Positions 1-31,921 of a stretch of 32,000 nt of DNA are shown piece by piece (within the stretch, counting starts at the first letter, position 1; each line of letters begins with the position of its first letter). A program made the position numbers and the translations under genes. The stretch spans positions 330,001 through 362,000 of the forward strand of contig JBJLBP010000001.1 in NCBI GenBank assembly GCA_045568075.1, in the 5' to 3' direction. Under the pieces are notes generated by a model. It saw only the letters and a list, made by a program, of their open reading frames with translations, was not told the DNA's origin and searched no databases. This DNA is from Candidatus Thalassarchaeaceae archaeon (GTDB lineage: Archaea; Thermoplasmatota; Poseidoniia; Poseidoniales; Thalassarchaeaceae).

Positions 1-1482
1 CCAGCGCTGAACCCAGCGTCGATTTCAATCCCACTTGATGTCGAAATTCAATCGGACAGAGAGCGAAGACAACCCCGGAACACCGACGACGAAGGTTACC
101 TTCCCGAAGCAGCTCAACCTCACATTTGGGCCATCGAAAAGGACCAACTTTTGCGGACACATAGAGGTGCTGGACTACGACCGCGACTAGCCACTAGATG
201 GCCGGTCGTCGGTGGTCCAAACCGTGAGACCATCGATCCTCGCCCCCTCCGTCCTAAAGCAACAGGATCACAACCTTACAATTCTCGTCACGGCTATCTT
301 GAAGGAGCGGAGCAGTCAGTCGAAATTTGGTCTGCAAGTCGCCTCAAAGAGTGGGTCACCTGCCCGAGAAGGGGGTGGCTAAGCAGGGGATTGTCGGCCG
401 AGGAGGAAGAACGTCAGAGAGAGGACTTAGACTCACGAGCACAAGGAAATTTACTCCATGAAGTTCACCACCGGATCCTTGAACGCATCCTCGGAATTGA
501 ACAAGGAATCGAGCGCACAATTGACCAAATCCAGAAGGGGGAATTTCCTCAAAATATCACATCAAGCGGACTCTCGGACGCCGAATTACAATCGATTGCT
601 CTCGACGAATTATCCAACCTTGCACCTTGGTTGGAACGCACCGATGCGGTATCGAGCGCGAGGCTGAGATTGCTAACTGGATTCTCGCGCGCAGAGTGGT
701 TAGATTGGCTGAAGGATGGTTCTCCGATTAGTCCAACAGGACGAATCGGACGAATGGTTACTGCCGAATGTTCTCTAGAAGGAACGATTCCAATCGCGAC
801 GGAATGGGAGGCGCTGTCATTCAATTCGGCCGGGGTCGAGATTTCTATTCCTGCTAAGATCACAAGCCCTGGGAAGCAGAAATTGCCACCACTACGGCTT
901 CGTGGACAGATAGACAGAGTCGACTTGCTTCCATTCGACGCTGAAATGAAAGTCCTTGTCGACGAATCCGGCTCGAATAGCATCGCCCCATTGAGGCTCG
1001 CAGGCAGTGATTGGAAACCACGCCGTCTGATCATTATACGCGATATCAAAACAAGTGAGGGCGACCCTCTCAAACGCCACAAAGTAGGTTTGCTGGAGGA
1101 ATTACAACTCGCACTCTACGCCCGAGCTTGGGAGGTAGCCCATCCCGGAGACCTCGTTGTGGCCACAGGAATCAGCGTGATTGGCCACAACACCGACCAT
1201 TTACTCGAGGTTTCGAACCATCTGGCTACTAATTCAAAATCGAGGAACTTCGGCAATACGAAGAAGCAGCAGACACCCTCTCGATATCGCTTCCCAGACG
1301 AGGACGCAGAGAGCAAAAGCGATCCATTCCGGGCTTGGTTGGCTCAGAGACTATCCTCAGCCCTCGCGGCCGCAGCGAGAGCGGCCGAAGGTCGAGTTCA
1401 CCCAACACCGAGCAAGGATGCGTGCAAGTTCTGCCCGGTAACCTCGGTGTGCAATGTGAGACACAAGGGGGATGACCGATGA
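1..1482 (+). CDS. AddB/AdnA-like helicase-nuclease subunit, C-terminal PD-(D/E)XK nuclease domain with four-Cys (Fe-S type) staple; 5'-partial
   Basis: Frame 1 has no stop from nt 1, and the track ORF begins only at a TTG at 151, so the gene very likely continues upstream of the window. Motifs: WVTCPRRGW (Cys1, 361-363), HEVHHRIL, GQIDRVDLL, IIIRDIKTSEG (D...DxK), LQLALYARAW (QxxxY), CKFCPVTSVC (Cys2-4, 1423-1452). This is the AddB/Cas4-type nuclease layout. The stop overlaps the next start (ATGA at 1479-1482). Confidence 0.7.
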   Translation, partial: PALNPASISIPLDVEIQSDRERRQPRNTDDEGYLPEAAQPHIWAIEKDQLLRTHRGAGLRPRLATRWPVVGGPNRETIDPRPLRPKATGSQPYNSRHGYLEGAEQSVEIWSASRLKEWVTCPRRGWLSRGLSAEEEERQREDLDSRAQGNLLHEVHHRILERILGIEQGIERTIDQIQKGEFPQNITSSGLSDAELQSIALDELSNLAPWLERTDAVSSARLRLLTGFSRAEWLDWLKDGSPISPTGRIGRMVTAECSLEGTIPIATEWEALSFNSAGVEISIPAKITSPGKQKLPPLRLRGQIDRVDLLPFDAEMKVLVDESGSNSIAPLRLAGSDWKPRRLIIIRDIKTSEGDPLKRHKVGLLEELQLALYARAWEVAHPGDLVVATGISVIGHNTDHLLEVSNHLATNSKSRNFGNTKKQQTPSRYRFPDEDAESKSDPFRAWLAQRLSSALAAAARAAEGRVHPTPSKDACKFCPVTSVCNVRHKGDDR

Positions 1483-4400
1483 GCGAGGACTCAGATGAAA
1501 TCACGCTCAACACCGGCCAGCGGCTGGCGCTCAATCTCGATTCACATATTGTCATCGACGCAGGAGCGGGAACTGGAAAGACGATGACCATCGTCGAACG
1601 AGTAGTCCAACATTATCTCGAAGAAGATCAGCGGGCAACACGAATTCTCCCTCAGCCTGAGAGACCTCGCCGACTTGAAGGTGGCACAATTGTCTCACCA
1701 ATGGCGGAGCGCAAGGATTTGCGGGATTGGGGAGGATTGCTCCCTGGGGAGGTCGTTCTACTCACTTTCACCGTCGCAGCAGCCGATAAGATGCGTGACG
1801 AATTGAGGCAGAAAATCGCTCGTTTAGGAGTCGGTTCCTACGGTTCCTCGGGCGGCTATGATGCAGATCCACGAATCACCGACAAAGGCTTCCCCGAGCA
1901 GCTTCTGATGTTGGTTGAAGATGCTCCGATTGGCACAATCGACTCATTCTTCAATCAACTCGTTGCTCCATTCCGAAGTTTGCTGGGTGACGAATTAGGC
2001 GACGATGTGGTGACTGAATCTGATATTCTTCGCATCGTCGAACAGAGCATAAACACCCTCTGGCGCTTGCCCAATTCACCGAATCTCTACGGTGATGCGG
2101 TCGACGCAGGGATTCCAGTTGCAGATGTCGGTGCTGTCCTAGCAGCGCGCGACCGCATCTCTCAACATTATTCAGGCCGATACAAGGCAACGAAGATACT
2201 CAGTCCCTTGATATCGAAATCAATTTTCATTGCTGAAAGTGAACGGGGACTACTGGATGAAAATGAGAGAATTGACCCGGATCTTCTTCACGAGAGAATC
2301 ATGTCTTCGATTCGTACAGAAGATATCGACGAAGTTGTTTCAAATTTCCAATCAATCATTGAGGATTTCGTCGATGCCACTCGAACGAATTTGGCCGGCC
2401 TAACCCCTGGAGGTAAATGGGATCAAGGCACAAGAATCGATGTACTGGCAGCCCTTTCTGACTCAGGTCCTCCGACTGGAGATTGGCAACGTTTGATTTG
2501 GTTGAGCCGTGTATTACTTTGTATTACTGGCTCCCAATTACTACAGGATAAGGCGACTCTATTCCCTAGAAAGAAGTTGCCAAATAGTGACGAATGGAGC
2601 GCAGGAATTGCCTCGTATAGTGCTCTGAAGAATCCCTTCAAAGAGAACCTCAAGACCGTCTGGGAAGGATGCCACAATCGTGCCAAGGAAGTGATGAACT
2701 CACATGTGGGCAAACGCGTCCGTCACCACACTCGCCTCGCACTCATACTCGACCCACGAATTGGTTCAGGTATACCCCAAGGTGCGCCTCAGACGCTAGA
2801 ACATCTACCTGAGATATTGCCCGAGCGTCTGCCTCTTGGCCGACCACCGCAGGACTTTGCATTCGATTTGGCTTCTGAATCCCGCAACCTCGACGATATT
2901 CGTATTGTGCTGAAAGGATTGACGGGAATCGTCGATGTGCTGAAGGAGCGCGATGAGGTTCACGAGCATCGTGACATTGCATTGCTTGCGGGCGACTTAC
3001 TACTTGCTAACTGCCCGCGAGTCTGCCGTTTGTTCTATCCGCCAACTGTGATTGATGCACTCGATTCGTTAGATGAGATGACATGGCGTGACGATCATAT
3101 TCACCGAGCCTTCGCAGCCCTTGAAGCACTCGAAGAGAAGCCCAGCATGGCAGGTGAGGCAGCGGGACGGCTCAGCGAAATCAGAGCAGATCTTGAGCGC
3201 CGCCACTCTGATTTACGCAGTATCCGGCGACGTTATCGAGCCTTCATCATCGATGAGGCTCAGGACAATTCACCCCTACAATGGCGTATGCTATCTCGAC
3301 TCTGGGGGCCTAGGGAAATACGCTCAGGAGAGGTAGAGGAACCGGATACCGATTGGCAGCCAACAGTCTGTTATGTCGGCGATATGAAGCAGTCGATTTA
3401 CGCATTCCGTCAAGCCGAAGTTGCCGGATTCCGCCAATTCGCTGAGAGGTTGCGTGCCATCAATCGCCATGAATTTGACAACTTGAGTGAACTTACCCGT
3501 GAGCCAGTTCTACGGAGTGGAATCCAGAGTCGAGACCCGCGATTCTCTCATGAACGTCAGATTGTACGGGCTTCGCAATTGTTGGCAACCAACGCGCGCA
3601 ATCTCACTGGATGGGTGCATTTCGAGACGACCGAGGGAGCATCTTCCCTCACTCCAGAAGAGGTAGATGCTCGCAGAGATGGCCAAATTTCACTGACTAC
3701 GAATTACCGCACCGATGGTGATCTATTGGAGGTGATGAATGAGTGGTGGGAGGACCTATTCGGTGATCGCCATCGCTTCTTTCCCAACGCAGATTACTAC
3801 GCCTTGCCACAGCGTTTGCTTGCTTCCCCGAAGAAGGAGCACCGCCGTGGCGTCCTCGAATGGATTTGTCCAGTCAGAGACGATGGTGACGAGGATCCTC
3901 CTTCGGAATTGACCACGTACATCGATCCATTCGGCCCCGGTAAGCCGGACTCCTTTGAGCGCCAAGCGATGATGATTGCTGAGCGAATTCAGACATTGAC
4001 AGCGTGTAGAAACACCCGTGTCCGACACGCTTCCGGCGAATGGCTGGTGATCCCTTCAGCTGAAGAACCGATTCGGTACAGTGATGTCATGATTTTGATG
4101 GCAAGTCGCTCCAAGATTCGCGATGCTCTGATACGGCATCTCCGAGACCACAATATTCCAGTTCAAGCCGATCGTGAGGGCGGCTTGATGCGGCGACCTG
4201 TGGTAGCCGAACTCGATGGATTGCTACAATTCATCGCGCGACCGAGTAGTCGCTTCGCAGCAGCCTGGGTCGCGCGCTCCTCACTCATCGGAATGGATGA
4301 TGCAAGACTGCAAGCCTTCCTCTCGGCGGGAAGGAATGAGAATTTACTCGCGCGCTTGCTTGATTATTCAGCTTCAGAAAGGCAGCAGGCTTTGGTCCAA

Positions 4401-6527
4401 CGCTGGATTAATCTCTCAGCCGCTGGACGTCTTGTCGATTTGCTCGATGAAACCATCGATCAGTCAGACCTTCTCGTCGCTCATTGTGAAGAAGGAGCAA
4501 TCCAAGATGTCGAGAGATTCGTCAACGAAGTACGTTTGATTTCGAACTCCGTCGGCGGCGACCCTATCGTCATCGCCGACCGCCTACGTGACCTGCGGGA
4601 ACAGGACGGTCGCGCGCTTGAGGGCAAGAATACCCCTGAGCGCGACGCAGTCCAACTGATGTCTATCCACAATTCTAAGGGACTGGAGGCGAAGGTAGTT
4701 TTCGTCACTGATTTGTTTAGTAAAAAGCAGGTGACTCTGACCAATGAGGATCAATCAAGACTCATCGTCAACCCTGAATTCTTCGCGGGTCATCCAGCAC
4801 CTTGGCCTGGCAATAAGTACCCAGCATCCGCGATGTGGCAACACTCTCGAAGAATCGCTCTCAAACGGAAAAATGCTGAAGCTCGTCGTCTCCTATACGT
4901 CGCTGCAACGCGTGTTGAACAACACCTCGTCATCGTTGGCTCACCCGAGAAAACGGAGTGGATTGATGAGTCCGGATTGAAAATCGACTGGAAGTATTCC
5001 GAATCTCAAACAACGCTTGGCCAGATGTGGGCCGAATCGCTCAGGCAGGCTTCGCATCGTCGCGGCGAGACTTCGAATCAATCTCCATGGGTAGAAGCAG
5101 CGGACGATGGTCAGCCTCATCCACTCAACTCAGGAGCAGGGGCTGACCGATTCCTCAACCCCGGAAGTCTGCAACAAGATGGATGGCTACGTCCCCCCAA
5201 ATCGGGTCACCCAAAGCCTGGCATGAGAATTTACCATCATCCAGATTGCTTCCGAAGTGATGATTCGAAGGCGAATGTGCTTCACTCACCGCTCGTTCGT
5301 CAAACAATGCTCGATCAAGCCGTAAACGATTCTCGCTTAGCCCCGGTCGAATTGACTACGAGGATATCGACCGGTGCTCGCATCCGCCTCGCGCCGCACC
5401 GTCTCTCGAAGATTGATGCCTGCCCGCGCAGACATTGGTTCGAGACGCGCGGCGGCCTCAAACCTGACCCGATTTCTTCCACAGACCAACACGATGAGGA
5501 GGACGAACAAGATCCTCGTGCATCGAGGCTGATGGATGAGTCTGACGGCCCAACATTAGCCGAAACGGAGGGTGCTGCGAATCTACCTTCGCCGACCCAA
5601 TTGGGTCTCATAGTTCACAGGGTACTTGAGGTCGGCATAGGTAATCCTGGGCCAGATGGTGAGCAGCCTTCGATGGCCTTACCTGAAATTTGGTCGAATC
5701 CAGTTGAGAGCAGGCTGAGTGATAGCAACCTGCTCGCTGAGGTGTTCGCTGAGCTGATGCCACGCGGTGTCGACGAGGAGAAGACCGAGCAGGTAGTTTC
5801 GACGATGCTGCAACGCATCGAAGAGGGCCTCGTCGGACGTTTAACGCGCGCAGAAGTCATCGATGGCGAGCGAGTCGAAGGCCTGCGTACAGAATACCCA
5901 TTCACCATCTCCAATCCAGTTTCGTTCGAAACGGTTCCGAGAACCCGCTGGACTCCAGATGGAATCGAGCAATTGGCGGGCATCGAGAGAGCTAGTATCG
6001 ACATGGATGGTTCCATCGATCTGGCTCTCTGCTCATCGCACGAAGATGGGACTTCATCTATCAGGCCAATCGACCTGAAGACCGAACAGGCTGCGAGCAT
6101 CCTCGATGATTCGGGGTCACTTCTCGACGCTCTCGGTAACCACGCCACCGAACCTGCTAACGATGCTGAAATCGAGATGCTGCGCCACCACCGACTACAA
6201 TTGGCTCTGTACCACAGAGCGTTGGAGATGATGGAAGCGACGCGTCCTGAGGGGCAGCGTCGAAGGGTCGAGCGGCCAGCGATTCTTGTCGGTGTCACCG
6301 GCCGTCTCGTCATCTATCCGGTCGAGATGTTCGAACAAGCCCAAGCCCAGATAGACGATATTCTCGCAACGGCGGCGCGAATGGAACTCGCAACAGAACT
6401 TCCACTCGCCGATTTCCAGCGCCTCCCTCAATCGAAAGCCCACGTTTGCGCGATGTGCCCATTCAGCATGGGGGACTTGCCGATTTGCGGACCGCTGAGT
6501 GAAACCGAAGCGAGTATCGAGACCTGA
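1479..6527 (+). CDS. UvrD/AddA/RecB-like superfamily-1 helicase fused to a C-terminal PD-(D/E)XK nuclease with four-Cys cluster (1682 aa)
   Basis: Helicase motifs in order: I DAGAGTGKT (1563-1583), Ia LLTFTVAAADKMRDEL, Ib IGTIDSFFNQL, II FIIDEAQDNSP (DEAQD from 3252), III YVGDMKQSIYAFRQAE, IV LTTNYRTDG, V SIHNSKGLEAKVVFV, VI RRLLYVAATRVEQHLVIVG. Nuclease motifs: ACPRRHW (5421-5423), LIVHRVLE, GSIDLAL, IRPIDLKTEQ (DxK), LQLALYHRAL (QxxxY), CAMCPFSMGDLPIC (6447-6488). Confidence 0.85.
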   Translation: MSEDSDEITLNTGQRLALNLDSHIVIDAGAGTGKTMTIVERVVQHYLEEDQRATRILPQPERPRRLEGGTIVSPMAERKDLRDWGGLLPGEVVLLTFTVAAADKMRDELRQKIARLGVGSYGSSGGYDADPRITDKGFPEQLLMLVEDAPIGTIDSFFNQLVAPFRSLLGDELGDDVVTESDILRIVEQSINTLWRLPNSPNLYGDAVDAGIPVADVGAVLAARDRISQHYSGRYKATKILSPLISKSIFIAESERGLLDENERIDPDLLHERIMSSIRTEDIDEVVSNFQSIIEDFVDATRTNLAGLTPGGKWDQGTRIDVLAALSDSGPPTGDWQRLIWLSRVLLCITGSQLLQDKATLFPRKKLPNSDEWSAGIASYSALKNPFKENLKTVWEGCHNRAKEVMNSHVGKRVRHHTRLALILDPRIGSGIPQGAPQTLEHLPEILPERLPLGRPPQDFAFDLASESRNLDDIRIVLKGLTGIVDVLKERDEVHEHRDIALLAGDLLLANCPRVCRLFYPPTVIDALDSLDEMTWRDDHIHRAFAALEALEEKPSMAGEAAGRLSEIRADLERRHSDLRSIRRRYRAFIIDEAQDNSPLQWRMLSRLWGPREIRSGEVEEPDTDWQPTVCYVGDMKQSIYAFRQAEVAGFRQFAERLRAINRHEFDNLSELTREPVLRSGIQSRDPRFSHERQIVRASQLLATNARNLTGWVHFETTEGASSLTPEEVDARRDGQISLTTNYRTDGDLLEVMNEWWEDLFGDRHRFFPNADYYALPQRLLASPKKEHRRGVLEWICPVRDDGDEDPPSELTTYIDPFGPGKPDSFERQAMMIAERIQTLTACRNTRVRHASGEWLVIPSAEEPIRYSDVMILMASRSKIRDALIRHLRDHNIPVQADREGGLMRRPVVAELDGLLQFIARPSSRFAAAWVARSSLIGMDDARLQAFLSAGRNENLLARLLDYSASERQQALVQRWINLSAAGRLVDLLDETIDQSDLLVAHCEEGAIQDVERFVNEVRLISNSVGGDPIVIADRLRDLREQDGRALEGKNTPERDAVQLMSIHNSKGLEAKVVFVTDLFSKKQVTLTNEDQSRLIVNPEFFAGHPAPWPGNKYPASAMWQHSRRIALKRKNAEARRLLYVAATRVEQHLVIVGSPEKTEWIDESGLKIDWKYSESQTTLGQMWAESLRQASHRRGETSNQSPWVEAADDGQPHPLNSGAGADRFLNPGSLQQDGWLRPPKSGHPKPGMRIYHHPDCFRSDDSKANVLHSPLVRQTMLDQAVNDSRLAPVELTTRISTGARIRLAPHRLSKIDACPRRHWFETRGGLKPDPISSTDQHDEEDEQDPRASRLMDESDGPTLAETEGAANLPSPTQLGLIVHRVLEVGIGNPGPDGEQPSMALPEIWSNPVESRLSDSNLLAEVFAELMPRGVDEEKTEQVVSTMLQRIEEGLVGRLTRAEVIDGERVEGLRTEYPFTISNPVSFETVPRTRWTPDGIEQLAGIERASIDMDGSIDLALCSSHEDGTSSIRPIDLKTEQAASILDDSGSLLDALGNHATEPANDAEIEMLRHHRLQLALYHRALEMMEATRPEGQRRRVERPAILVGVTGRLVIYPVEMFEQAQAQIDDILATAARMELATELPLADFQRLPQSKAHVCAMCPFSMGDLPICGPLSETEASIET

Positions 6528-6587
6528 ACAAGCGTTGTGAAGCGACAGGGGGGAAGACTCCATTTGCCCAGTAGGGCAGCCGAAGCC

Positions 6588-8000
6588 ATGTCCGCCGACC
6601 TCGACAGCCTAGTTGAGAATGCAGAGAAGATTTGGGAGCAGTCGATCCTACCTAGTCTCGGGGAATTCATTGAGATCCACGCGCTCTCACCAGGATTTGA
6701 ACCAAATTGGGATGAATTGGGCGAGCTTCAAGCCACAATCGACCTCTTCACAGGTTGGCTAGATGAACAAGGCCTCGAAGGTATGAGTTACGAAACTCAT
6801 CGAATTGCAGAACATTCGCCGGTGCTGATGGTTACTATCGAAGGCACCGGTAGCGGCGAGGTTCTTTTCTACTCACATTTGGACAAACAACCGAGCCGAC
6901 CTCACCTTTGGTCAGAAGGATTGCACCCTCTGAAAGCGGTGCGTCGCGACCCATTCCTATTCGGACGCGGTTCAGTCGACGACGGCTATGGCGGGTACCT
7001 CTGCGTGACTGCGATTAGGTTGCTACAAGAGGCTGGAATACCGCACCCGAAGGCGACTTTCATCATCGAAACATGTGAGGAATCTGGTTCCTTCGATTTG
7101 CCACCCTACCTTGAGGCATTGACTGACGAACTCGGTTCGCCCGACCTCATAGTCGTGCTCGACAGCGGTGGCCCAACATACGATCACATATGGGTCACTG
7201 AGGCGCTGCGAGGTCTTGTAGCAGGCAACCTCAGAGTCAAGGTCTCGCACGAAGGAGTTCACTCAGGAATGTCTGGCGGAGCCATACCGTCTTCGTTCAG
7301 GATTCAGCGGATGTTACTTGACCGCGTTGAGGATAGCGAAACCGGTCGAGTGTTAATTCCAGAGATGCATGTCGATATCTCAGACAAGATTCAGGCTGAG
7401 GCTGCCGCACTCGGTGAGATACTCGGTGACGAACTTTGGAAGAGTCTACCAGTAGTTGATTCCCTAGAACCCCAAACACGCGGCGCCGACCAAATTCTGC
7501 TTGACATCAATTGGCGTCCAGCCCTCGGAATCATCGGCGCCGATGGCATGCCTCCAGTGCAGACTGCGGGTAACGTATTGCGAACTCACACCGACCTCAA
7601 ACTCAGCTTCCGCATCCCACCAGGAGTCAAGGCGGAAGAGGTACAGAAAATTGCCAAGAGTACTCTTGAGGCCAACCCTCCTTACGGCGCGGAAGTGACC
7701 TACTACGCAACAGAGCCTGCCGATGGATTCCATGCTCCACCTCTGCACGAAGGCGTTGCAGCAGCCCTAGACAGTGCCAGCCGATACCTCACTGGATTCC
7801 CACCGATGGCGACTTGGATAGGTGGAACAATTCCGTTCATGGCGATGATTCAGCAGAAATTCCCCGAGGCATCCTTCATCTGCACCGGATCGGCAGGTCC
7901 AGGGAATAATGCCCATGGACCTGACGAGAAACTCCACATCCCTCACTCAAAGCGGGTCAATGTAGCACTTGCAGCAGCAGTCGCAGCCCTTTGTGAGTGA
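6588..8000 (+). CDS. M20-family metallopeptidase (dipeptidase/deacylase-like)
   Basis: Motifs YSHLDKQP, GRGSVDDGYG and ETCEESGS (metal ligands/catalytic EE) plus NAHGPDE near the C-terminus. I prefer ATG 6588 (MSADLDSLVENAEKIW...) over the track's GTG 6537. Confidence 0.8.
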   Translation: MSADLDSLVENAEKIWEQSILPSLGEFIEIHALSPGFEPNWDELGELQATIDLFTGWLDEQGLEGMSYETHRIAEHSPVLMVTIEGTGSGEVLFYSHLDKQPSRPHLWSEGLHPLKAVRRDPFLFGRGSVDDGYGGYLCVTAIRLLQEAGIPHPKATFIIETCEESGSFDLPPYLEALTDELGSPDLIVVLDSGGPTYDHIWVTEALRGLVAGNLRVKVSHEGVHSGMSGGAIPSSFRIQRMLLDRVEDSETGRVLIPEMHVDISDKIQAEAAALGEILGDELWKSLPVVDSLEPQTRGADQILLDINWRPALGIIGADGMPPVQTAGNVLRTHTDLKLSFRIPPGVKAEEVQKIAKSTLEANPPYGAEVTYYATEPADGFHAPPLHEGVAAALDSASRYLTGFPPMATWIGGTIPFMAMIQQKFPEASFICTGSAGPGNNAHGPDEKLHIPHSKRVNVALAAAVAALCE

Positions 8001-8040
8001 TTTCTACGCCTCACCGAGGTAGACGTCGGGCATTCCAACC

Positions 8041-8066
8041 GCGGATTCGCAGAACATTCAATCCGC
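8041..8066 (+). other. Hairpin (GCGGATT / 12-nt loop / AATCCGC) downstream of the M20 gene; a second, mutually exclusive GC hairpin overlaps it (8063-8085)
   Basis: Perfect 7-bp inverted repeat read directly from the sequence. There is no T-tract, so its function is unknown. Confidence 0.25.
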
Positions 8067-8110
8067 CGCAGTTAAAGCGGGGCGGAGTCTCGAAGTAGCG
8101 AGGTGCGTCG

Positions 8111-8731
8111 ATGAGCGAAGAAGACTCCACTGTCTCCCCCGATCTACGAATCCGCCAATTGGAAGAGGATCTCCTCAAGGAGAAGGACCGCCTTGAGAAG
8201 CTCTACGCGGGTTACACAGCCCTCAAGGATGCGACCGATGAGAAGGACGCAACTATCGATGTCCTTGAGCGCCAGATGATCGACAAAGAGATCGAAATGG
8301 AGGGCATGCAGGAGCTCTTCTCAGAGAAGGATGTAAGAATCCGTGACCTCGAACTCGACGGTGCAAAGAACTCCCAGCGAGTCAAGCACCTCGAGCCAGA
8401 ACTCCAGAAGATGGAGGAGATGTATACTCGTGAATCAGCTCGTCTTGGCCGTGTTTTCGAGGTTGCTGAAGACCTCGATGAGGCACTACGCGTCGCCAAG
8501 GGCCAACTGAACGCTCGCGATGATTGGTATGCTCAACACATGAAACTCTTCGAGGATCTCAGTACAGCGATTCAGACCCGCTACGATATGATCGATTCCG
8601 CCATCGAGGCGATTCGCGAGCAGGAACTGAAGCAAGCAACCTTCCGCGAGCGCATGGATGAGGCTCTAGAAGCAGCAGGCGATGAGTTGACTGCTGATGA
8701 CGAGCCTGAGGAAGAAGTCGACGACGAGTGA
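8111..8731 (+). CDS. Hypothetical acidic coiled-coil protein (206 aa)
   Basis: GAGGTG Shine-Dalgarno 6 nt upstream of the ATG. The sequence is heptad-like and E/K/D/L-rich throughout, with an acidic tail (DDEPEEEVDDE). I recognise no family. Confidence 0.6.
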   Translation: MSEEDSTVSPDLRIRQLEEDLLKEKDRLEKLYAGYTALKDATDEKDATIDVLERQMIDKEIEMEGMQELFSEKDVRIRDLELDGAKNSQRVKHLEPELQKMEEMYTRESARLGRVFEVAEDLDEALRVAKGQLNARDDWYAQHMKLFEDLSTAIQTRYDMIDSAIEAIREQELKQATFRERMDEALEAAGDELTADDEPEEEVDDE

Positions 8732-8763
8732 ACCGTCTCGCAAGTTGAGTGATTATCTCAGAA

Positions 8764-9483
8764 TCATTCCGGTTTTGAACCGTCGGCGCGGCGAATGCAT
8801 TTTGCAGGAATGCCCCCCCATACTTCTCCTGCTGGGACCACTGTCCATTTTGGCAGTACAGCCATGGTGGCAATTACTGCTCCCTCTCCTATCTTACAAC
8901 CTGGTTGCACAGTCGACTTTGCTCCAATAAGAGCCCCATCGCCGATTACTACAGGAGCCATGACTAACTCACCTTTTTCAACAAGATGCGCATTGATTGT
9001 GCATGAACCTCCGAGAACAACATTATTCCCTATAATTACTGATTTGCAATCGTTAACATTCTCAGTGTTTAGTTGGCAACCCTTACCTATTTTCGCTCCA
9101 GAAAGTCTGTAGTACAATGTTCCAATGAATGAGGGGACTAGTTTTGGTAGGAAGAACAATGCAATACGATGGAAGAGCATTGAAAATGCCCACTGGATTG
9201 TAACAAACGATCTGAGCGGATACCTTCCTTCTCCAACTCGGGGGCCAGTCAAGCCACCTAGAACCCCTGATAACAAAACTAAGGTTACACCCCAAATCAT
9301 AACTCCAAATCCAAGGAGGATGCTTGTACCAAGAATTTCAATCCAGTAATCTTGCTCAGCAACTAATGGATGAAATTCAAGAAATATCCAGACTCCTGGT
9401 GTAGCAGCGATTCCCACAACAATTGCTAACATAGGGATGACTAGAGTAGTCAACAAATTCTGAACAAATTCAAACGATTTCAT
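8764..9483 (-). CDS. Membrane-anchored hexapeptide-repeat (left-handed beta-helix) acyltransferase-like protein
   Basis: About 4 hydrophobic helices at the N-terminus, then an LbH-type repeat run: GAKIGKGCQL...VIIGNNVVLGGSCTINAH...VVIGDGALIGAKSTVQPGCKIGEGAVIA. The start overlaps the upstream MFS stop (ATGA at 9480-9483). Confidence 0.7.
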   Translation of the reverse strand: MKSFEFVQNLLTTLVIPMLAIVVGIAATPGVWIFLEFHPLVAEQDYWIEILGTSILLGFGVMIWGVTLVLLSGVLGGLTGPRVGEGRYPLRSFVTIQWAFSMLFHRIALFFLPKLVPSFIGTLYYRLSGAKIGKGCQLNTENVNDCKSVIIGNNVVLGGSCTINAHLVEKGELVMAPVVIGDGALIGAKSTVQPGCKIGEGAVIATMAVLPKWTVVPAGEVWGGIPAKCIRRADGSKPE

Positions 9484-11294
9484 TTTTCTTCACCACGAAA
9501 TAATCCAGCTTCAGCATCAACGGCTTTTGCAACTCTTATTCCTTCTTCAACATCAATACGAAGGAATATCAGCATTCCTAGTAATATCACTATGACGATG
9601 CTGAGAAGGGCCATTCGGCTATCCATCGAAGATGATACTACAAAGTAAATCAATGGCCCGAATACAGCCGCTGCTTTTCCGATAAATCCGAAGAATCCGA
9701 AGAACTCAGTGGTCTTCGATGCTGGGATTAGCATGCCGAATAAACTGCGAGCCTGTGCTCCAGCAGTTCCCATTACCATTCCAACCATCATTCCAAGTAA
9801 AATCCATTGAAAGTTAACTCCAAATCCTGCGGGACCCCAAACATTGTCTCTCAGGAAGTTAGGCCACCAATCCACCATACCGCCTTCAATAATTGAGGGG
9901 TGCCCATCTCCTACCGATGCGCTTTCATCCAACTCTCCACCACTAAATGAGAAAGAGAATCTGTGTTCAGTCATTTGATCCATTTCAATGGCCAATAAGC
10001 CTGCATCCTCTAGGTTCAGAGAGGTTCTTTCATCCTCTCCCTCTTTCAAGAAAGAGAGGAAACTATCTCTGAATTCTGCATCCCCGGCTCCTTCTTTACT
10101 CACCCATCCATCTACTCCTTTATCATAGAGCGTGGAGAGTTCGTAAACACCCTCGTCTTCGTTCCAATCATATTGAAAATCATATCTTTCATGGTCATCA
10201 TCAAGATCTAGGGGTGCAAATCCAACCGCTAGTACGGCAACTACGCAGTAAACCGAAAGAGCAGCTCCAAGGATTTTTTTGGTACCATGTTTAGAAGCCA
10301 GACGGCCACCTATTACTGACATCGGGATAGCGGTGATATTGACCATTAGTAATAGTACGAAATTCATAGCCGGATTAATTCTTAGAACCGAATCCGCAAA
10401 AGCTGAGGCCATTGCTCCAATGGTATTGATGCCATCATAGAATAGAAGATATCCAATTAAGTAAGTTACCAATACTTTGTACTTCTTTATTTCCTTGAAT
10501 GTTTTACCAACTTCTCTGAATCCGTCAATCATTGCTTCAGTCAAAGATTCGTACTCAGTGGGATTGGGAATTTCAGGCTCAGGTGTATTCTTGAAAATTG
10601 GCATTCCAAAACCTAACCACCATAGTGCACTGGTGATGAAGACGAAGCTAAGTATCGGAGGGCTCCAACTTGTGGAAAGTCCAAAGAAACCAGTCGTCCC
10701 GACGACTAAGTGTACGATTAGTAGTAGTGAACCTCCAGCATAACCGTAGGCATATCCCCAACTAGAAACATGATCCATTAATCGATAATCTGCAAGATAG
10801 GGCATGAAAGCATAGTAGATTACATTCCCTCCTGCAAATCCAATATTTCCAATGACTAAACAGATTGCTAGGAATTTCCACGATGAATCCTCTCCCATGA
10901 AAGGTGAGATTCCCATTAATGCAGTAAATACGATGCCAATAATCGTGTAAATCCACAAAATTTTCTTCTTTATCGGCATTCGATCTGCTACAGCACCAAG
11001 AATCGGACTACTAATTGCAACAAACATACTAGATATTGCTAGCACAATAGCATAGAATCCATCACCGGTAACTTCCCATCCAGCATACTCTTTCCCACCC
11101 CCTGTGGCTAGATTGAACATACTGGATAGCAGGAAGGGGACTACTACGGTAAGAACAGTGAGTGCAAAGGCTTGATTGGCCCAGTCGTACCAATACCAAC
11201 TCTTCAGAGATTTTTTCTCTTCAGCACTCATTTTGTCGAGCAAATTATCGACTAATTCTGATTTCGAACCCCCACTATCCGAAACAGATTCCAT
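9480..11294 (-). CDS. MFS transporter, UMF1/Atg22-like family, with a large acidic soluble insertion
   Basis: WYWYDWANQAF signature near the N-terminus and many TM segments. A ~125-aa non-hydrophobic acidic block lies between TM segments (about 9830-10214). The start is uncertain: ATG 11294 (MESVSDS...) is preferred over the track's TTG 11351. Confidence 0.7.
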   Translation of the reverse strand: MESVSDSGGSKSELVDNLLDKMSAEEKKSLKSWYWYDWANQAFALTVLTVVVPFLLSSMFNLATGGGKEYAGWEVTGDGFYAIVLAISSMFVAISSPILGAVADRMPIKKKILWIYTIIGIVFTALMGISPFMGEDSSWKFLAICLVIGNIGFAGGNVIYYAFMPYLADYRLMDHVSSWGYAYGYAGGSLLLIVHLVVGTTGFFGLSTSWSPPILSFVFITSALWWLGFGMPIFKNTPEPEIPNPTEYESLTEAMIDGFREVGKTFKEIKKYKVLVTYLIGYLLFYDGINTIGAMASAFADSVLRINPAMNFVLLLMVNITAIPMSVIGGRLASKHGTKKILGAALSVYCVVAVLAVGFAPLDLDDDHERYDFQYDWNEDEGVYELSTLYDKGVDGWVSKEGAGDAEFRDSFLSFLKEGEDERTSLNLEDAGLLAIEMDQMTEHRFSFSFSGGELDESASVGDGHPSIIEGGMVDWWPNFLRDNVWGPAGFGVNFQWILLGMMVGMVMGTAGAQARSLFGMLIPASKTTEFFGFFGFIGKAAAVFGPLIYFVVSSSMDSRMALLSIVIVILLGMLIFLRIDVEEGIRVAKAVDAEAGLFRGEEK

Positions 11295-11375
11295 ACCACT
11301 TACGATGCGAGCAGGCAAATTAGGTTGACCTATTGGACCCGTCAGAATCAAGTCGGGGTTCAGAGCCGATAAATC

Positions 11376-12510
11376 ATGGGAGATGCCTGTGGTGTGATGG
11401 GCGACGGCTCACCCGCCGTCAAGATTCATCATTTGGTCAAGGCGCCAGAGAACACCGCAGCATCGATATCTCGTCGAGAGTCTTGGGACGCAAGCAAGCC
11501 CGCGACAGTCTATGTGACTCCTGAGCGAATGCCAGACGGCACGCCATGCCAAGCCGCGACTGTGATTCTCAGAACTCGCGGATGTGCTTGGTGGTGGAAG
11601 TCTGGATGCACCTTTTGTGGCTACTTCAACGACGTACGCGATGATGTGACTGCAGACAATCTCTTCGCGCAGTGGGATGCTGCAAAGAAGCAAACCAAGG
11701 ACTTCAAAGGATGCACGATGGTCAAGGTCTACACTTCTGGGACCTTCTTCGAAGACCAAGAGAATCCAGTCGAGTGGCAAGAACACGTCCTGCGGGAGAC
11801 TCACGAGATGGGTCTACACCTCATCGTCGAAGCCCAAGCACACATGTGCAAGCCAGAGAAACTCGCCTTCCTCGCCAAGCACAATCCGAACACTACAGTT
11901 GCAATCGGACTCGAGGCTTACGACGACGCAGTACTACGATTTCACGTCAATAAGGGATTCTCAACGAAGACCTGGCGCAAGTCGGTAGCTGACCTCCGCA
12001 GCCAACGGTCTTCGAGTCAAAACCTACCTGATTTTCAAGCCCCCATTCATGAGTGAGGGCGACGCCCTCGAACACACTTCAAAGTGGCTCATCGAAGTCG
12101 CGCCGCTCTCCGACGAAGTATCGATCAACCCGATGAACATCCAAAATCGAACCATCGTCGACCGCCTCTTCCGCAATCGAGAGTACCGCCCGCCATGGCT
12201 GTGGTCACTGGTCGAGATGATCCAGCGAACCCACGAAGCCACCGCAGAGCACGACGCCCGCATCATCGTTCATCCAACTGCGGGCGGCAAAATCCGCGGC
12301 GCCCACAATTGTGGCAATTGCGATAAGCACGTGGTCGCCGCAATAGAACGCTACTCAGTCTCCCGTAATCTAGCTGAATTCAAAGGACTCGAATGCGATT
12401 GTAAGGCCGTCTGGTCTGCAGAAATCAATTCAGATCTCACATTCCCTACTCCACTAGGGTCAGGGCGCGACCGCAGAGGCAACCGCGTTGACCTAATGCG
12501 AGCGCCCTGA
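11376..12510 (+). pseudogene. Radical-SAM protein resembling the archaeosine-synthesis enzyme RaSEA (TIGR01210-like), interrupted by a 1-nt frameshift near 12000
   Basis: Cys motif ILRTRGCAWWWKSGCTFCGY in ORF 11376-12056 (frame 3). The homologous sequence continues in frame 1 as ..ANGLRVKTYLIFKPPFMSEGDALEH...INPMNIQNRTIVDRLFRNREYRPPWLWSLVE (ORF 12049-12510). Frame 1 is closed by TAG at 11986-11988, so the shift lies within 11989-12003. An alternative start is ATG 11397, 26 nt downstream of GATAAAT (possibly leaderless). Confidence 0.6.
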
Positions 12511-12858: not shown

Positions 12859-12868
12859 GGTGATTGTG

Positions 12869-14533
12869 ATGGATTCGATACTCTCAACCTTAGCAGTTTT
12901 CTGGGCTTGCGCCCTCATTTTCTACCTCCTCGTCCATCGTGGACTGTGGATTTTCTCTGACGTTGCCCGTGGCATGGGGATGTTCATGCTCGAGAAGGCT
13001 CTCGGCCCTGGAATCGAATTAGTCGAGGGCCGTTCAGGCTCTGCAGCAAGAGCATGGATTGTTCAGTCAGCCCTGTGGCTGATGCTCGGTGGGCTATTCA
13101 CCTTCGAGGGTTTTTGGCTTGCTCACGACCCTACTGCTCTGCACTCACTCAGTGCTTGGGGATATGATCCGACCGCCGAGACACTGGCTGCTACCGGCAA
13201 GGCCGTGACTGCCTTCGGTGGAGTCACGATGGCAATTATCGGCTGCGGTCTGCACATTCTCCCCAAGTTGCTAGGAACTGATTTGGCGAGTGAGCGTAAC
13301 GGTACTCTCGTCTCCTTCCTTTACTCAGGGTCAGTTGCAGTGATGATAATCGGCTCGCACGACCCTGTAATTCTGGGAGTCAAGGTTCTCATTATCGGCA
13401 CAGGCATCCATATTCTGGCTATTACTGCAATCGTAATCAACCAACTACTGACACTCGCCAATCGTTCGGGTTCAATCTCTTTACCGGCTTGGTTGATTCT
13501 CTTCGGATTGATGTCTGAATCGTTCAACCTGATCGCAGGAATTGCCACCGGTGCTATCACCGATGGCGATGGCCAGTGGCTGATGTATAGAATTCAGTCT
13601 GGTGGATTCTTCTTCCTCTCAACCGCTGGTGTAGTACTCTATGCTACGAGTGTGGCGAGCGGCAATGCTCTGTGGTCACGTTCACTAGTCGGTGCCACTC
13701 TATTCGGCGGCTTGTTCACTCTACAGCCTCTGGGATCTCGTGAAGGCTCGCTAGTTGCGGACCTCTTCGGTCTCGATGCTGGCGAGATGGCAATGGGTCA
13801 GAGCGACATGGTCGTCTCAAGCTTCTTGCTGGCGTTAGCTGCAATTCCAGTGATTGCCTTCTGCGCTAATGCAATGTTGACGATGCGCGGTGGTAATTCT
13901 TCTGGCGCCAACCCAAATATGGCAGGCTTGGCTGAAATGAATCTCGGTGTTATAGCGATGATTCCTGTCTTCGTTGGGGCCTTGTTTGTTCAGACAGATT
14001 CGGTCTCCGGGACCGATGCTCTAACTGGTATTGCTGGAACCATCGATGAAATGGGTCGTTGGGCTGTCTTAGTGCCACTGAACTTCGGTGCTGCTCTAGC
14101 CCTGTATCCGTCGATTACTGGTCGCCAGTTAGCTTCGGCTAGCCGCGCCCGAACCGCTTTCTGGCTGATGTCGAGCGGCGTGCTACTGGGATTGATGGTG
14201 ACTCTGACATCGAATGCCATCGATATTGCTCTACTCGATGCTGGCGTTCTTGATCCGTCGAGCCTGGCTCACGACTTGGCTGTGGCTGGCTCGGTAATAT
14301 TCTACTTCGTAGTAATCGCAATGATTCTGCACTGCATGAACATGGTCAGCGGACTATTCCGTGGGCAAATCGTTGGAGAGGGTGATGAGGGCGCTTCGAG
14401 CATCCAGGTGGATAGTTACAATCTCGCTTCGCCAACGACGGTGGCTCGAATCTTGGGCTCTGGCGCTGGAATGGACACTGTCATCGTGCCGGTCGGTGAA
14501 TCTGATGAGGCTGGTTCGGCGACCGACCTTTGA
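12869..14533 (+). CDS. Polytopic integral membrane protein, ~12-13 TM, unknown function
   Basis: About 13 hydrophobic segments. GAGGTGA (12857-12863) lies 5 nt before ATG 12869, indicating translational coupling to the small upstream membrane protein. No family is confidently recognised. Confidence 0.65.
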   Translation: MDSILSTLAVFWACALIFYLLVHRGLWIFSDVARGMGMFMLEKALGPGIELVEGRSGSAARAWIVQSALWLMLGGLFTFEGFWLAHDPTALHSLSAWGYDPTAETLAATGKAVTAFGGVTMAIIGCGLHILPKLLGTDLASERNGTLVSFLYSGSVAVMIIGSHDPVILGVKVLIIGTGIHILAITAIVINQLLTLANRSGSISLPAWLILFGLMSESFNLIAGIATGAITDGDGQWLMYRIQSGGFFFLSTAGVVLYATSVASGNALWSRSLVGATLFGGLFTLQPLGSREGSLVADLFGLDAGEMAMGQSDMVVSSFLLALAAIPVIAFCANAMLTMRGGNSSGANPNMAGLAEMNLGVIAMIPVFVGALFVQTDSVSGTDALTGIAGTIDEMGRWAVLVPLNFGAALALYPSITGRQLASASRARTAFWLMSSGVLLGLMVTLTSNAIDIALLDAGVLDPSSLAHDLAVAGSVIFYFVVIAMILHCMNMVSGLFRGQIVGEGDEGASSIQVDSYNLASPTTVARILGSGAGMDTVIVPVGESDEAGSATDL

Positions 14534-17259: not shown

Positions 17260-17291
17260 TTGCAGGGTAGTGTTCTCGCTTACTTCGCGCT

Positions 17292-17603
17292 TCAACCGAA
17301 GAGAGATCCGAGTCCTTCGAAGCCACCGGCGTCGTCTTCCTCTTCCTCTACTTCAGCTGGAGCTTCCTCAGCAGCAGGAGCGCCGGCAGAGCCGCCAGCA
17401 GAAGCTGGGGCAGCGGCGACAGGCGCAGCGACCGCAGTCGCCATTGCCTCACCGATGTCAACATCACCGAGCGAAGTGACGAGTGCCTTTACACGAGCAC
17501 CGTCAACATCCACACCAGCGGCGCTCAGAACTGAGCTCACACCGTTTTCATCGATTTCCTTCTCTGCGGAGTGCAGAAGCATTGCAGCATATACGTATTC
17601 CAT
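17292..17603 (-). CDS. rpl12: 50S ribosomal stalk protein P1 (archaeal L12)
   Basis: [17 protein letters not shown]... N-terminus, an Ala/Pro hinge and an acidic tail [32 protein letters not shown] context places the start at 17603 rather than the track's GTG 17612. Confidence 0.95.
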
Positions 17604-17621
17604 TTTTCTCACCTATTTTTT

Positions 17622-18647
17622 TCAGCCGAAGAGATCGCCTAGTCCACCGAACTCGGCTTCCTCTTCTTCCTCCTCTTCCTCCTCAGCCGGAGTTTCCTCG
17701 GCTGGGTCTGCCGCATCGGAGGTTGCGGCGGGTGCGCTGGTGGCGGCGCTAGCAGCAGCACCGAGTGCAGCTGCCAGCTCGTCATCAAGCGCAGAGGAAT
17801 CTAGCTGGCCCGCGAGGGCCAGCGCGCGCGCGTTGGCGCGCGATACGAACAGTGGAATCGTGACATCGTTGGTGATGCCAGCTTCCACAGCGACAGATGT
17901 CGCCTCTCCGCTGGCCTTGGCCAGGAGGGTCGGCATTGTCTGTGAAGAGAACCAGCGGATGTTGCAGGCGAGATTGAAGGCGCCTGATGTCGCTGTGATG
18001 ATGTCCGTGCGGAATTCTTCAGTGTCGATGTCGAGCGAGTCGGCTTCGAATAGGAAGCCGTCCTCAATCGCTCCGGTAAGGATGATACCAATCTCAATCG
18101 GATTGATTCCAAGCTTTGCGAGCATGATTCCAAGGTCAGCAGAAATCGTTTCTCCTTGCTCGACCACAGTCGTAGTCTTCTGGATAGCAACCTTGCCCTT
18201 GTCGATCTTCGCGGGAATTCCCACGGCGTTGAATTCACCGACGATTGGACCTGGTCCAAACTCGGTTGGTCCCTGCTCTACGACGATGTCGATTGGAGAT
18301 ACCTCGCCTTCCTTAGCTGCACGGCCCTGACGGGTCTTCTCCAATTCTGAGAAGAGTTGGAAGGCGTTCATTGAGTCTGTGTGAACGATGGCCGGCTGGA
18401 TTGCGCCATCAAGTAGAGTGTCGAGGTCGCCCATAGGGCGGCCAGATTGTTCCCAAGCGAGGCGCATCAGCGTCTTCTTGGCCATCGTGATACTCATGCT
18501 GTTGCGGAGGTCTTTGCGCATGCTGAGCATGTTCTTGGCTGGGACGCCGCCAATGTCGACGACTCCCAGAACTCCATCGGAGGACAGAATCGCGGCGAGT
18601 TCTCCGACGCGATCGCGCTTCCATGGAGCGACCTTAGCATCAATCAT
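17622..18647 (-). CDS. rpl10: 50S ribosomal protein uL10 (P0)
   Basis: N-terminus ...APWKRDRVGELAAIL...VVDIGGVPAKNMLSMRKDLR and C-terminal tail EEEEEEEEEAEFGGLGDLFG. The start overlaps the rpl1 stop (ATGA at 18644-18647), with GAGGTGA upstream. Confidence 0.95.
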   Translation of the reverse strand: MIDAKVAPWKRDRVGELAAILSSDGVLGVVDIGGVPAKNMLSMRKDLRNSMSITMAKKTLMRLAWEQSGRPMGDLDTLLDGAIQPAIVHTDSMNAFQLFSELEKTRQGRAAKEGEVSPIDIVVEQGPTEFGPGPIVGEFNAVGIPAKIDKGKVAIQKTTTVVEQGETISADLGIMLAKLGINPIEIGIILTGAIEDGFLFEADSLDIDTEEFRTDIITATSGAFNLACNIRWFSSQTMPTLLAKASGEATSVAVEAGITNDVTIPLFVSRANARALALAGQLDSSALDDELAAALGAAASAATSAPAATSDAADPAEETPAEEEEEEEEEAEFGGLGDLFG

Positions 18648-24722: not shown

Positions 24723-25607
24723 ATGAGTTGCCTCGGTGCCCTTCCCACTAGCTTTGAACCAACATATACCTGTGCGACTGAGATACTTGCCACTGCTCCG
24801 GTTTCGGCACTGATCATATTCGTAATCGGCATTCCGCTTATCAGTATCGCCAAGCGCTATCTGCGCAGATTATTTGACAAAACCGAGTTCGACGAAGCCC
24901 TTGAAAATTTTATTTTTCGAATCGCCGTTCTGTTGATGTGGGCTTTAGTAATCCTCACCGCTGCAAATGAATTGGGCATCAATGTGACCGGCATCGTCGC
25001 TGCATTGGGAATTCTTGGACTGGCTGTCGCCTTCGCCGCTCAGGACACCATGGAGAATATCATTGCGGGTATATTCGTCATCGTCGACAGACCGTTCCGA
25101 GAAGGTGAGCGCATACTTTTGCCAAAGAAGCTCGGTGGCATTTACAGTAGTTGGGGTGATGTTATCGAAATTGGCCTGCGTACCACGGTCGTGCGCTCTA
25201 CTGATGGGGTGATGCTAACTATTCCCAACAAATTGCTGACCAATGATACAGTAGCAAATTTCAGCCACAGTGCCGACATGGAATTACGCGTTCGGATTAG
25301 GCTGGGACTGATTCCTACCTGGTCTAATGTATCGAAAGCTGAAGAAATCATCATAGATATTGCGGAAAATCATCCTGATATCAGCAAGACGCCGAAACCG
25401 CCAGAGGTTGTAATGCGCGATTTCGGGGACCAAGAAGTTATCATGGAAATCCGATATTATGTCAATAATGCTCGAAAGATGCGTCCGTCAAAGTCCTTCT
25501 TTGTCGGTGAAATTCTTCGACGATTTGATGAGAGTGGGGTGTCGTTGGCTTTCCCAGTCAGAATCAATATGAACAGTGACGTCGACCTCGGAGATCTTGG
25601 ATTTTAG
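24723..25607 (+). CDS. Small-conductance mechanosensitive channel (MscS family)
   Basis: Three N-terminal TMs, then the pore helix/beta-domain signature LAVAFAAQDTMENIIAGIFVIVDRPFREGERI. Confidence 0.85.
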   Translation: MSCLGALPTSFEPTYTCATEILATAPVSALIIFVIGIPLISIAKRYLRRLFDKTEFDEALENFIFRIAVLLMWALVILTAANELGINVTGIVAALGILGLAVAFAAQDTMENIIAGIFVIVDRPFREGERILLPKKLGGIYSSWGDVIEIGLRTTVVRSTDGVMLTIPNKLLTNDTVANFSHSADMELRVRIRLGLIPTWSNVSKAEEIIIDIAENHPDISKTPKPPEVVMRDFGDQEVIMEIRYYVNNARKMRPSKSFFVGEILRRFDESGVSLAFPVRINMNSDVDLGDLGF

Positions 25608-25701
25608 GCAGTGCGATTCCATTGAGGCCTTGCTCGGCCGATTATTCAGCCGGCTGGGTAATCTCGCGCTTCAGACGGTAGCCATCCGATTGAGATATCT
25701 T

Positions 25702-27087: not shown

Positions 27088-27091
27088 TTAA

Positions 27092-27559: not shown

Positions 27560-27590
27560 AGCAAAAACCCCAAATTAACTCACTTTTAAT

Positions 27591-28223: not shown

Positions 28224-28270
28224 TAGGTTATCAATGACTGTTTGTGTTCCTAATGGAAGCAAACACCCGA

Positions 28271-28278
28271 TTATATGC
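28271..28278. promoter_or_regulatory. Near-palindromic TATA element (TTATAT / ATATAA) in the ribA-phr divergent intergenic region
   Basis: It is centred ~26 nt upstream of the phr ATG (28300), the spacing expected for a leaderless archaeal mRNA. On the other strand ATATAA lies ~50 nt upstream of the first ribA ATG. Confidence 0.4.
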
Positions 28279-28299
28279 AGAACTAGTATTGTCGCACAC

Positions 28300-29856: not shown

Positions 29857-29860
29857 TTAG

Positions 29861-31255: not shown

Positions 31256-31271
31256 CTTATCTCACATATTT

Positions 31272-31760: not shown

Positions 31761-31921
31761 GTTTCGGAACTATCGAATGAGTGTATTAACTGCTGTTTTC
31801 TTAATCATAGTCATTTCATTGCTAAAAATTGGGTTTATCTATGGGTTATTCTGTGGTGAACTGACAGAGATTTATATGTGATTTCGACGAAAAAATACAT
31901 CTGTTCATAACCTCTACTTCG

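Follow-up and report, generated by a model that had tools for sequence, protein, structure and literature searches.

Does a marine archaeon resect its DNA ends with a machine of a type otherwise assigned to bacteria? In textbooks archaeal end resection is the work of Mre11-Rad50 with HerA-NurA, and AddAB, RecBCD and AdnAB belong to bacteria. The question is raised by two adjacent genes at the beginning of a 32,000 nt stretch of DNA (hereafter the window), which covers positions 330,001–362,000 of the forward strand of contig JBJLBP010000001.1 in assembly GCA_045568075.1 of a Candidatus Thalassarchaeaceae archaeon. A preliminary description of the window had read the two genes as a two-subunit helicase-nuclease of the AddAB or AdnAB kind, either laterally acquired or serving in defence. 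The analysis reported here indicates that the pair is probably an AddAB-type heterodimeric helicase-nuclease that serves Marine Group II (Poseidoniales) as a housekeeping enzyme, encoded on the chromosome and inherited vertically.

The two genes are translationally coupled. Both the open reading frames (ORFs) and the sequence itself confirm the arrangement first proposed, in which the start codon of subunit 2 overlaps the stop codon of subunit 1 within a shared ATGA and the start of subunit 1 lies outside the window:

1–1482, forward strand: 3′ part (493 codons) of the subunit 1 gene, open in frame 1 from base 1 to the TGA at 1480–1482

1467–1482, forward strand: coupling junction as read from the sequence, GGGGG at 1467–1471 and then ATGA at 1479–1482

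1479–6527, forward strand: subunit 2 gene, 1682 amino acids (aa), a superfamily 1A (SF1A, UvrD-type) helicase followed by a PD-(D/E)XK nuclease, from Pfam, NCBIfam and profile matches

An overlap of start and stop codons (ATGA, TGATG or TTGA) is kept in 10 of 10 related loci, in each case preceded by a purine run similar to a Shine-Dalgarno sequence (GGAGG/AGGTG-like); this conservation fits the production of an equimolar heterodimer. The order B-then-A with overlapping genes is also that of the approximately 60 bacterial addB-addA loci retrieved. Given more than 120 full-length homologues at 45–100 % identity, together with invariant catalytic motifs, the pair is far beyond what chance would produce.

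In subunit 2 the SF1A motifs are all intact and the PD-(D/E)XK active site is complete. Pfam assigns it UvrD-helicase (7e-26), UvrD_C (1.7e-12), PDDEXK_1 (3.9e-9) and AAA_19 (6e-9) domains. The helicase motifs, I to VI, extend over 1557–4928 on the forward strand and were compared motif by motif with those of 33 bacterial AddA sequences:

1557–1583, forward strand: motif I/Walker A, DAGAGTGKT

1758–1793, forward strand: motif Ia

1932–1961, forward strand: motif Ib, GTIDSFF

3246–3269, forward strand: motif II, IIDEAQDN

3372–3422, forward strand: motif III, YVGDMKQSIYAFRQAEV (family form GDxKQSIYxFRxA)

3693–3713, forward strand: motif IV, LTTNYRT

4659–4706, forward strand: motif V

4884–4928, forward strand: motif VI, RRLLYVAATR

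All are invariant or nearly so in 23 subunit 2 homologues. The variants TIDSF (aa 153–157) and DEAQD (aa 592–596), which had been taken as signs of a divergent lineage, are indeed present but are weak evidence of divergence; the aspartate of motif Ib was discarded as a mark of the lineage, being found in 6 of the 33 bacterial AddA sequences as well.

The nuclease domain of subunit 2 occupies 5421–6488 on the forward strand, where the following positions carry its active site and cysteines:

5421–5438, forward strand: CPRRHW with C1315

5604–5630, forward strand: H1380

6009–6032, forward strand: D1514

6060–6089, forward strand: D1532-x-K1534

6198–6224, forward strand: Q1574xxxY1578

6447–6488, forward strand: CAMCPFSMGDLPIC, the CxxCx9C motif (C1657xxC1660x9C1670)

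H1380, D1514, D1532-x-K1534, Q1574xxxY1578, C1657 and C1660 are invariant in 30 homologues, and C1315 is nearly so. An AlphaFold2 (AF2) model of residues 1160–1682 (predicted local distance difference test score, pLDDT, 84) finds its best fold matches in AdnA, whose chain heads the list, ACE1/Cas4 and Dna2, with the nucleases of AddA and AddB close behind; the domain is about equally close to the bacterial AddA and AddB nucleases. The nuclease of AdnA is documented to hold an iron–sulfur (Fe-S) cluster (PMC13000450), and Cas4 and Dna2 have been described as homologous nucleases that bind Fe-S clusters (PMC5704561). The C-terminal cysteine motif occurs in 6 of 7 Marine Group II copies versus only 1 of 33 bacterial AddA sequences taken from loci. 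It is also found in 5 of a further 68 long representative proteins, most of them bacterial and a few archaeal, so that the cluster was rejected as a unique mark of the lineage. The predicted four-cysteine (Fe-S-type) nuclease of the A subunit is, on sequence grounds, characteristic of the lineage without being peculiar to it.

By sequence, subunit 2 has its best match in AddA. The NCBIfam models addA_alphas (134.7 bits), addA_Gpos (121 bits) and recB (112.8 bits) all score above PcrA and UvrD. A profile of the family searched against the PDB ranks AddA (3u44_A) first with 77 bits, followed by PcrA (54), RecB (50), UvrD and then AdnB (39), and profile-profile comparison with the 33 bacterial AddA sequences gives E 4e-83. 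A 1682-aa UvrD/AddA-like helicase with its own C-terminal nuclease, as first described, is therefore upheld by Pfam, by the intact motifs and by the AddA profile. Subunit 2 is about 35 % longer than bacterial AddA (1682 versus approximately 1200–1260 aa), the extra 350–420 or so residues being many scattered insertions of 12–34 residues with no single added domain.

Only the C-terminal part of subunit 1 lies in the window. About 710 N-terminal codons are located upstream, and the full length would be approximately 1204 aa, as in the homologue P0329 (1204 aa), which is 94 % identical over all 493 window residues when these are aligned to its residues 712–1204. Full-length relatives, of 1127–1305 aa, were obtained by querying with the N-terminal 800 aa of a relative, as the 493-aa fragment returned mostly short fragments. 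The window part matches Pfam PDDEXK_1 (5e-18), and its nuclease can be followed through these elements:

325–378, forward strand: start of the nuclease domain, IWSASRLKEWVTCPRRGW, with the first cluster cysteine (C121 of the window fragment), matching the N-terminal part of Cas4 and AddB nuclease models

904–1131, forward strand: catalytic motifs GQIDRVDL (904–927), IIIRDIKTSE with D-x-K (1030–1059) and QLALYARAW with QxxxY (1105–1131)

1423–1452, forward strand: CKFCPVTSVC (CxxCx5C), the other three cysteines of the AddB/Cas4-type Fe-S signature

The W, S, C, P, R and W of the first segment are invariant in 24 subunit 1 homologues. In the subunit 1 alignment (A2) I-D-R-V, R-x-x-K, Q-x-A-x-Y and the three cysteines of CxxCx5C are invariant, and the D of D-x-K is nearly so. 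CxxCx5C is present in 8 of 8 Marine Group II sequences examined and in most bacterial AddB; the full set of four nuclease-flanking cysteines (C...CxxCx5C) is likewise found in 8 of 8 copies, and Fe-S binding is predicted.

The kinship of subunit 1 to AddB is seen only by profile-profile and fold comparison, sequence-only searches being uninformative. Alignment of the family with 33 bacterial AddB sequences by hhalign gives a probability of 98.8 % and E 1e-16 over 620 columns, which span the helicase-like region as well as the nuclease, and the same comparison with bacterial AddA gives no match. An AF2 model of the homologue P0333 (pLDDT 79, residues 1–680 well predicted) was searched against the PDB with Foldseek, and the top five matches are AddB chains (3u44_B, 4cei_B, 4ceh_B; E approximately 3e-19, TM approximately 0.46–0.50), with AdnA (E 2e-15), RecC (E 9e-11) and UvrD later in the list. 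No Walker A motif is found in any of the 8 subunit 1 copies examined, whereas 21 of 33 bacterial AddB sequences have one. Subunit 1 is thus, as judged from sequence and model, an AddB-like scaffold in which a predicted dead-helicase fold, having apparently lost its motor, is joined to a putative four-cysteine nuclease with a complete active site.

Bacterial AddAB/RexAB, as in B. subtilis (PDB 3U44/4CEH), is the best match overall, through AddA by sequence for subunit 2 and AddB by profile and fold for subunit 1. The gene order and overlap are shared; in both, the A subunit is an SF1A helicase (predicted to be active in Marine Group II) with a RecB-family nuclease, and the B subunit has a helicase-like fold and a nuclease flanked by C...CxxCx5C. 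The Marine Group II enzyme differs in its longer A subunit, in the four cysteines (C...CxxCx9C) of the nuclease of that subunit, in the missing Walker A of subunit 1, and in its archaeal host, in which the partner recombinase would be RadA.

These same features bear on whether the pair might instead be an AdnAB-type machine with two motors and ATP binding by both subunits, or one of RecBCD type. RecB is homologous to subunit 2, with a recB score not far under that of addA_alphas, and RecC is a degenerate helicase-like scaffold, as subunit 1 appears to be. However, RecC is not known to have the nuclease active site or the cluster cysteines, whereas subunit 1 keeps D, D-x-K, QxxxY and the cluster cysteines, and no RecD-like SF1B gene, the third component, is found within approximately 10 kb of the pair. 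Mycobacterial AdnAB resembles the pair more closely in that it is a heterodimer with a helicase-like region and a nuclease in both subunits, and AdnA is the second-best fold for subunit 1 as well as the top one for the nuclease of subunit 2. In AdnAB, the Fe-S cluster is in the nuclease of the non-motor subunit AdnA, the motor-like domain of which binds nucleotide (PMC13000450). Against this, Walker A is absent throughout the subunit 1 copies, AddB outranks both AdnA and RecC in the fold search, and AdnB matches subunit 2 with only about half the bits of AddA. An AdnAB or RecBCD machine is consequently very improbable, and of the two affinities first suggested for the pair it is the AddAB one that has held.

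To survey the distribution of the pair, 1.84 billion representative proteins were searched exhaustively, residues 560–1682 of subunit 2 being the query. At E ≤ 1e-30 there are 57 representatives, all of them proteins of 1500–1716 aa or fragments of such; beyond these, scores fall to approximately 105 bits for proteins of 1100–1250 aa, one of which is named AddA. Named homologues of the pair come from Candidatus Thalassarchaeaceae, Thalassarchaeum, Poseidoniales, Poseidoniaceae and Poseidonia. The pair is present in each of the two named families of the order: other Thalassarchaeaceae carry it and, together with unclassified Poseidoniales, are 45–50 % identical, and Poseidoniaceae loci are 32–33 % identical. 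A scan of genome contigs gave at least six Poseidoniales loci among the matches listed.

In two neighbour-joining analyses the family is monophyletic in 100 of 100 and 200 of 200 bootstraps. This result, with scores far under the NCBIfam AddA and AddB equivalog cut-offs, bears out the earlier view of a divergent lineage. Its long branch joins long bacterial branches weakly (50 % of bootstraps for P0217, 29 % for P0218), and no donor lineage is named. Any lateral acquisition would be ancient, with inheritance vertical within Poseidoniales.

The host is archaeal, of the order Poseidoniales (Marine Group II) in the phylum Thermoplasmatota. Elsewhere in the window are archaeal markers, namely ribosomal P0/L10 with the archaeal/eukaryotic insertion domain, L1, Spt5-NGN, FtsZ and a TrmB regulator. 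The preliminary description had allowed for a bacterial/archaeal chimera with a break between position 6527 and the archaeal core genes, and no such break was found. G+C content is even (0.50–0.56) across 1–9000, including the junction at 6527. The gene order in the window is subunit 1, subunit 2, M20 peptidase, coiled-coil protein, hexapeptide acyltransferase, radical SAM, membrane protein, Obg-like GTPase, P1, P0 and L1. A 71 %-identity relative has the same order on a 1.53 Mb contig, ribosomal P1/P0/L1 included, and a 32 %-identity relative keeps the core order (subunit 1, subunit 2, M20 peptidase, radical SAM, membrane protein, GTPase) on a contig of 3.0 Mb. A chimeric contig is ruled out by the even G+C content and this shared order on Mb-scale contigs, which also makes the locus chromosomal and stable.

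Pairs of the addB-addA kind are also found in other archaea: Halogeometricum (WP_310925833.1), Natronomonas amylolytica (WP_336136435.1), a metagenome-assembled genome (MAG) of the Methanospirillaceae and a Thermoplasmatota MAG. The assignment of AddAB, RecBCD and AdnAB to bacteria, on which the preliminary description relied, is to this extent incomplete. The four pairs are located as follows:

4635–11747 of locus L088: addB-addA-like pair

4881–11399 of locus L089: addB-addA-like pair

4942–11189 of locus L090: addB-addA-like pair

4826–11789 of locus L091: addB-addA-like pair

In each, the gene of a UvrD/PDDEXK_1 protein is directly preceded by that of a PDDEXK_1 protein of 1019–1121 aa. 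Against the Marine Group II profiles the A subunits score 204 (Halogeometricum), 195 (Natronomonas), 178 (Thermoplasmatota MAG) and 177 bits (Methanospirillaceae), versus at most 147 bits for bacterial AddA taken from loci, and they are the top scorers among the non-Marine-Group-II sequences compared directly. For the B subunit, Halogeometricum reaches 44 bits and bacterial AddB at most 13. The A subunits of these four pairs are of ordinary AddA size (1062–1262 aa). In the two examined, those of Halogeometricum and Methanospirillaceae, the B subunit has no Walker A and the A subunit no C-terminal cysteine motif. A sister placement of the other archaeal pairs with the Marine Group II clade was recovered in only 5 of 200 neighbour-joining bootstraps. 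The Marine Group II lineage stands out in being enlarged, present in both families of its order, and syntenic.

Such pairs raise the possibility, unlikely on balance and offered tentatively, that AddAB-type machines are an old and overlooked means of DNA-end processing in mesophilic Euryarchaeota and Thermoplasmatota. An enlarged form, with a cysteine cluster in each nuclease, would then have come down to Poseidoniales from the order's ancestor, and Poseidoniales would use it with RadA, either before HerA-NurA or in its stead; the pairs of the haloarchaea, the methanogen and the other Thermoplasmatota would be of the same archaeal lineage and not separate recent imports from bacteria.

The surroundings of the pairs are also where a role in defence has to be considered. 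The pair could be a dedicated antiviral module that destroys foreign DNA, similar to UvrD-Cas4 fusions (linked to type III restriction-modification and Dcm) or to GajB of Gabija. UvrD-Cas4-like fusions in bacteria and mesophilic archaea are tied to defence contexts (PMC5704561). PADLOC returns GajB and Cas4 domain matches for the Marine Group II pair, but these are weak (at most 54 bits) and generic to UvrD and Cas4 domains. The Halogeometricum pair adjoins a BrxC/BrxD-like gene, an insertion sequence (IS) element and ParA, and the Methanospirillaceae pair adjoins an AAA_15/AAA_21 ATPase and AGOG. The settings of the haloarchaeal and methanogen pairs vary, and some are mobile or defence-like. 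In Poseidoniales, however, the pair is placed amid housekeeping genes whose order persists over the whole range of identity, 100 % to 32 %; within approximately 10 kb there is no methylase, restriction, GajA/OLD, Cas or toxin gene; and the partner protein is AddB-like and no defence effector. A defence module, also raised in the preliminary description, finds no support in this genomic context and is improbable.

Several observations do weigh against an AddAB-type housekeeping enzyme. The curated models are matched at scores far under their equivalog cut-offs, for subunit 2 (addA_alphas 134.7 versus 860.75, addA_Gpos 121 versus 707.65) as for subunit 1, whose NCBIfam matches to AddB and Cas4 are only marginal (addB_alphas 15.9 versus 486.5, addB_Gpos 15 versus 903.7). 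Searches of the PDB by phmmer and with a subunit 1 profile gave nothing relevant. Finally, the surroundings of the haloarchaeal relative indicate that related pairs can sit in mobile or defence-like regions. By its sequence scores, the family is best placed outside the curated AddA and AddB subfamilies and inside the wider AddAB architecture.

For an AddAB-type enzyme in this setting, the most likely role, by analogy, is end resection that feeds the archaeal recombinase. If the pair acts as B. subtilis AddAB does, the heterodimer would bind a double-stranded DNA end, and the AddA-like motor would translocate 3′ to 5′ and unwind the duplex. The 3′ strand would be cut by the AddA-like nuclease and the 5′ strand by the AddB-like one, with the inactive helicase domain of subunit 1 perhaps scanning the 3′ strand for a Chi-like regulatory sequence. 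The resulting 3′ single-stranded tail would be passed to RadA instead of RecA. Linear foreign DNA would be degraded incidentally, as it is by RecBCD and AddAB.

Reviews credit archaeal resection to Mre11-Rad50 with HerA-NurA (PMC7690668, PMC3326311). The presumed job is the same, namely 3′ single-stranded tails for RadA, but the proteins and mechanism are unrelated, HerA-NurA being a hexameric FtsK-like translocase with the NurA nuclease and the pair described here an SF1 helicase heterodimer.

Alternatively, the pair could act elsewhere in DNA metabolism, for instance on stalled or reversed replication forks or in Dna2-like removal of flaps, or it could be a decaying relic. The resemblance of the nuclease folds to Dna2 and Cas4-family enzymes leaves room for the former; sequence alone does not reveal function, and the M20 peptidase and other neighbours, for which no functional link to the pair is evident, give no clue. 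However, all helicase and nuclease catalytic residues are invariant in a family that has diverged to approximately 30 % identity, so the pair is no decaying relic. It matches AddAB in both architecture and partner, and AddAB takes reversed forks as substrates in addition to breaks. The alternative, which thereby largely overlaps with resection by an AddAB-type enzyme, is quite improbable.

Several further features of the neighbourhood are apparent, beginning directly downstream of the pair:

6537–8000, forward strand: M20-family peptidase gene, starting 10 nt past the stop codon of the AddA-like gene

8111–8731, forward strand: predicted coiled-coil protein of 206 aa, with weak SMC- and Spc7-like matches

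9480–11351, reverse strand: ATG22/MFS-type transporter gene, between the hexapeptide acyltransferase and radical SAM genes

11376–12510, forward strand: radical SAM gene, broken into ORFs at 11376–12056 (226 aa) and 12049–12510 (153 aa)

12860–14533, forward strand: 557-aa protein with no Pfam match and a multi-pass membrane look

17260–18330, forward strand: ORF of 356 aa without family matches, lying opposite the ribosomal P0 gene (17622–18647, reverse strand) in antisense

The M20 peptidase is directly downstream in every Marine Group II locus for which the downstream gene was identified, is 43 % identical to its counterpart in the 32 %-identity relative (L085), and may be co-transcribed with the pair. 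The coiled-coil gene appears conserved in position, as a 211-aa gene in loci L002–L004. The transporter stretch has a G+C content of 0.42 versus approximately 0.53 around it; L007 has an orthologue (58 % identity) at the same position, and L002, L003 and L004 have none. This is an insertion/deletion polymorphism where synteny is otherwise conserved. A frameshift shortly before position 12000 breaks the radical SAM gene, and the intact 377-aa orthologue in L002 aligns to the two pieces at 82 % and 90 % identity; the split is either a sequencing/assembly indel or a recent pseudogene. The 557-aa protein precedes the Obg-like GTPase in other loci too, with a 550-aa counterpart at this position in L002 and one of 627 aa in L085 (26 % identity, E 1e-22). 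The ORF at 17260–18330 falls in the highest-G+C kilobase of the window (0.61) and is probably spurious. At the far end, over 25000–32000, G+C content drops to 0.43–0.50; the genes there encode a TrmB-family regulator, a peroxiredoxin, GTP cyclohydrolase II, a 550-aa protein with no family match, an epimerase/DUF1731 protein and a cupredoxin.

Automatic annotation names the proteins of the family ‘UvrD-helicase domain-containing protein’, ‘PD-(D/E)XK nuclease family protein’, ‘exoDNAse V beta subunit’ or ‘hypothetical protein’. The literature search found no relevant paper on AddAB in Marine Group II, Euryarchaeota, haloarchaea or other archaea, nor on Poseidoniales with Rad50, and an AddAB-type pair is not discussed in the principal genome papers on Marine Group II. 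A long-known archaeal family, vertically inherited and already characterized, had been named as the finding that would overturn the first reading; inheritance is vertical within the order, and prior characterization did not emerge. The pair is an uncharacterized addition to the known AddAB kind with modest lineage-specific features, and the type of machine is itself not new.

Among planktonic archaea, Marine Group II is the order of greatest abundance. That it carries an AddAB-type enzyme, intact and at one fixed place on the chromosome, and that other archaea have similar pairs raises the questions of whether a bacterial-type resection machine works with archaeal RadA and single-strand-binding proteins, whether an archaeal Chi-like signal exists, and whether HerA-NurA is replaced or supplemented. 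For Marine Group II itself, the pair is a further case of a conserved gene of bacterial type.

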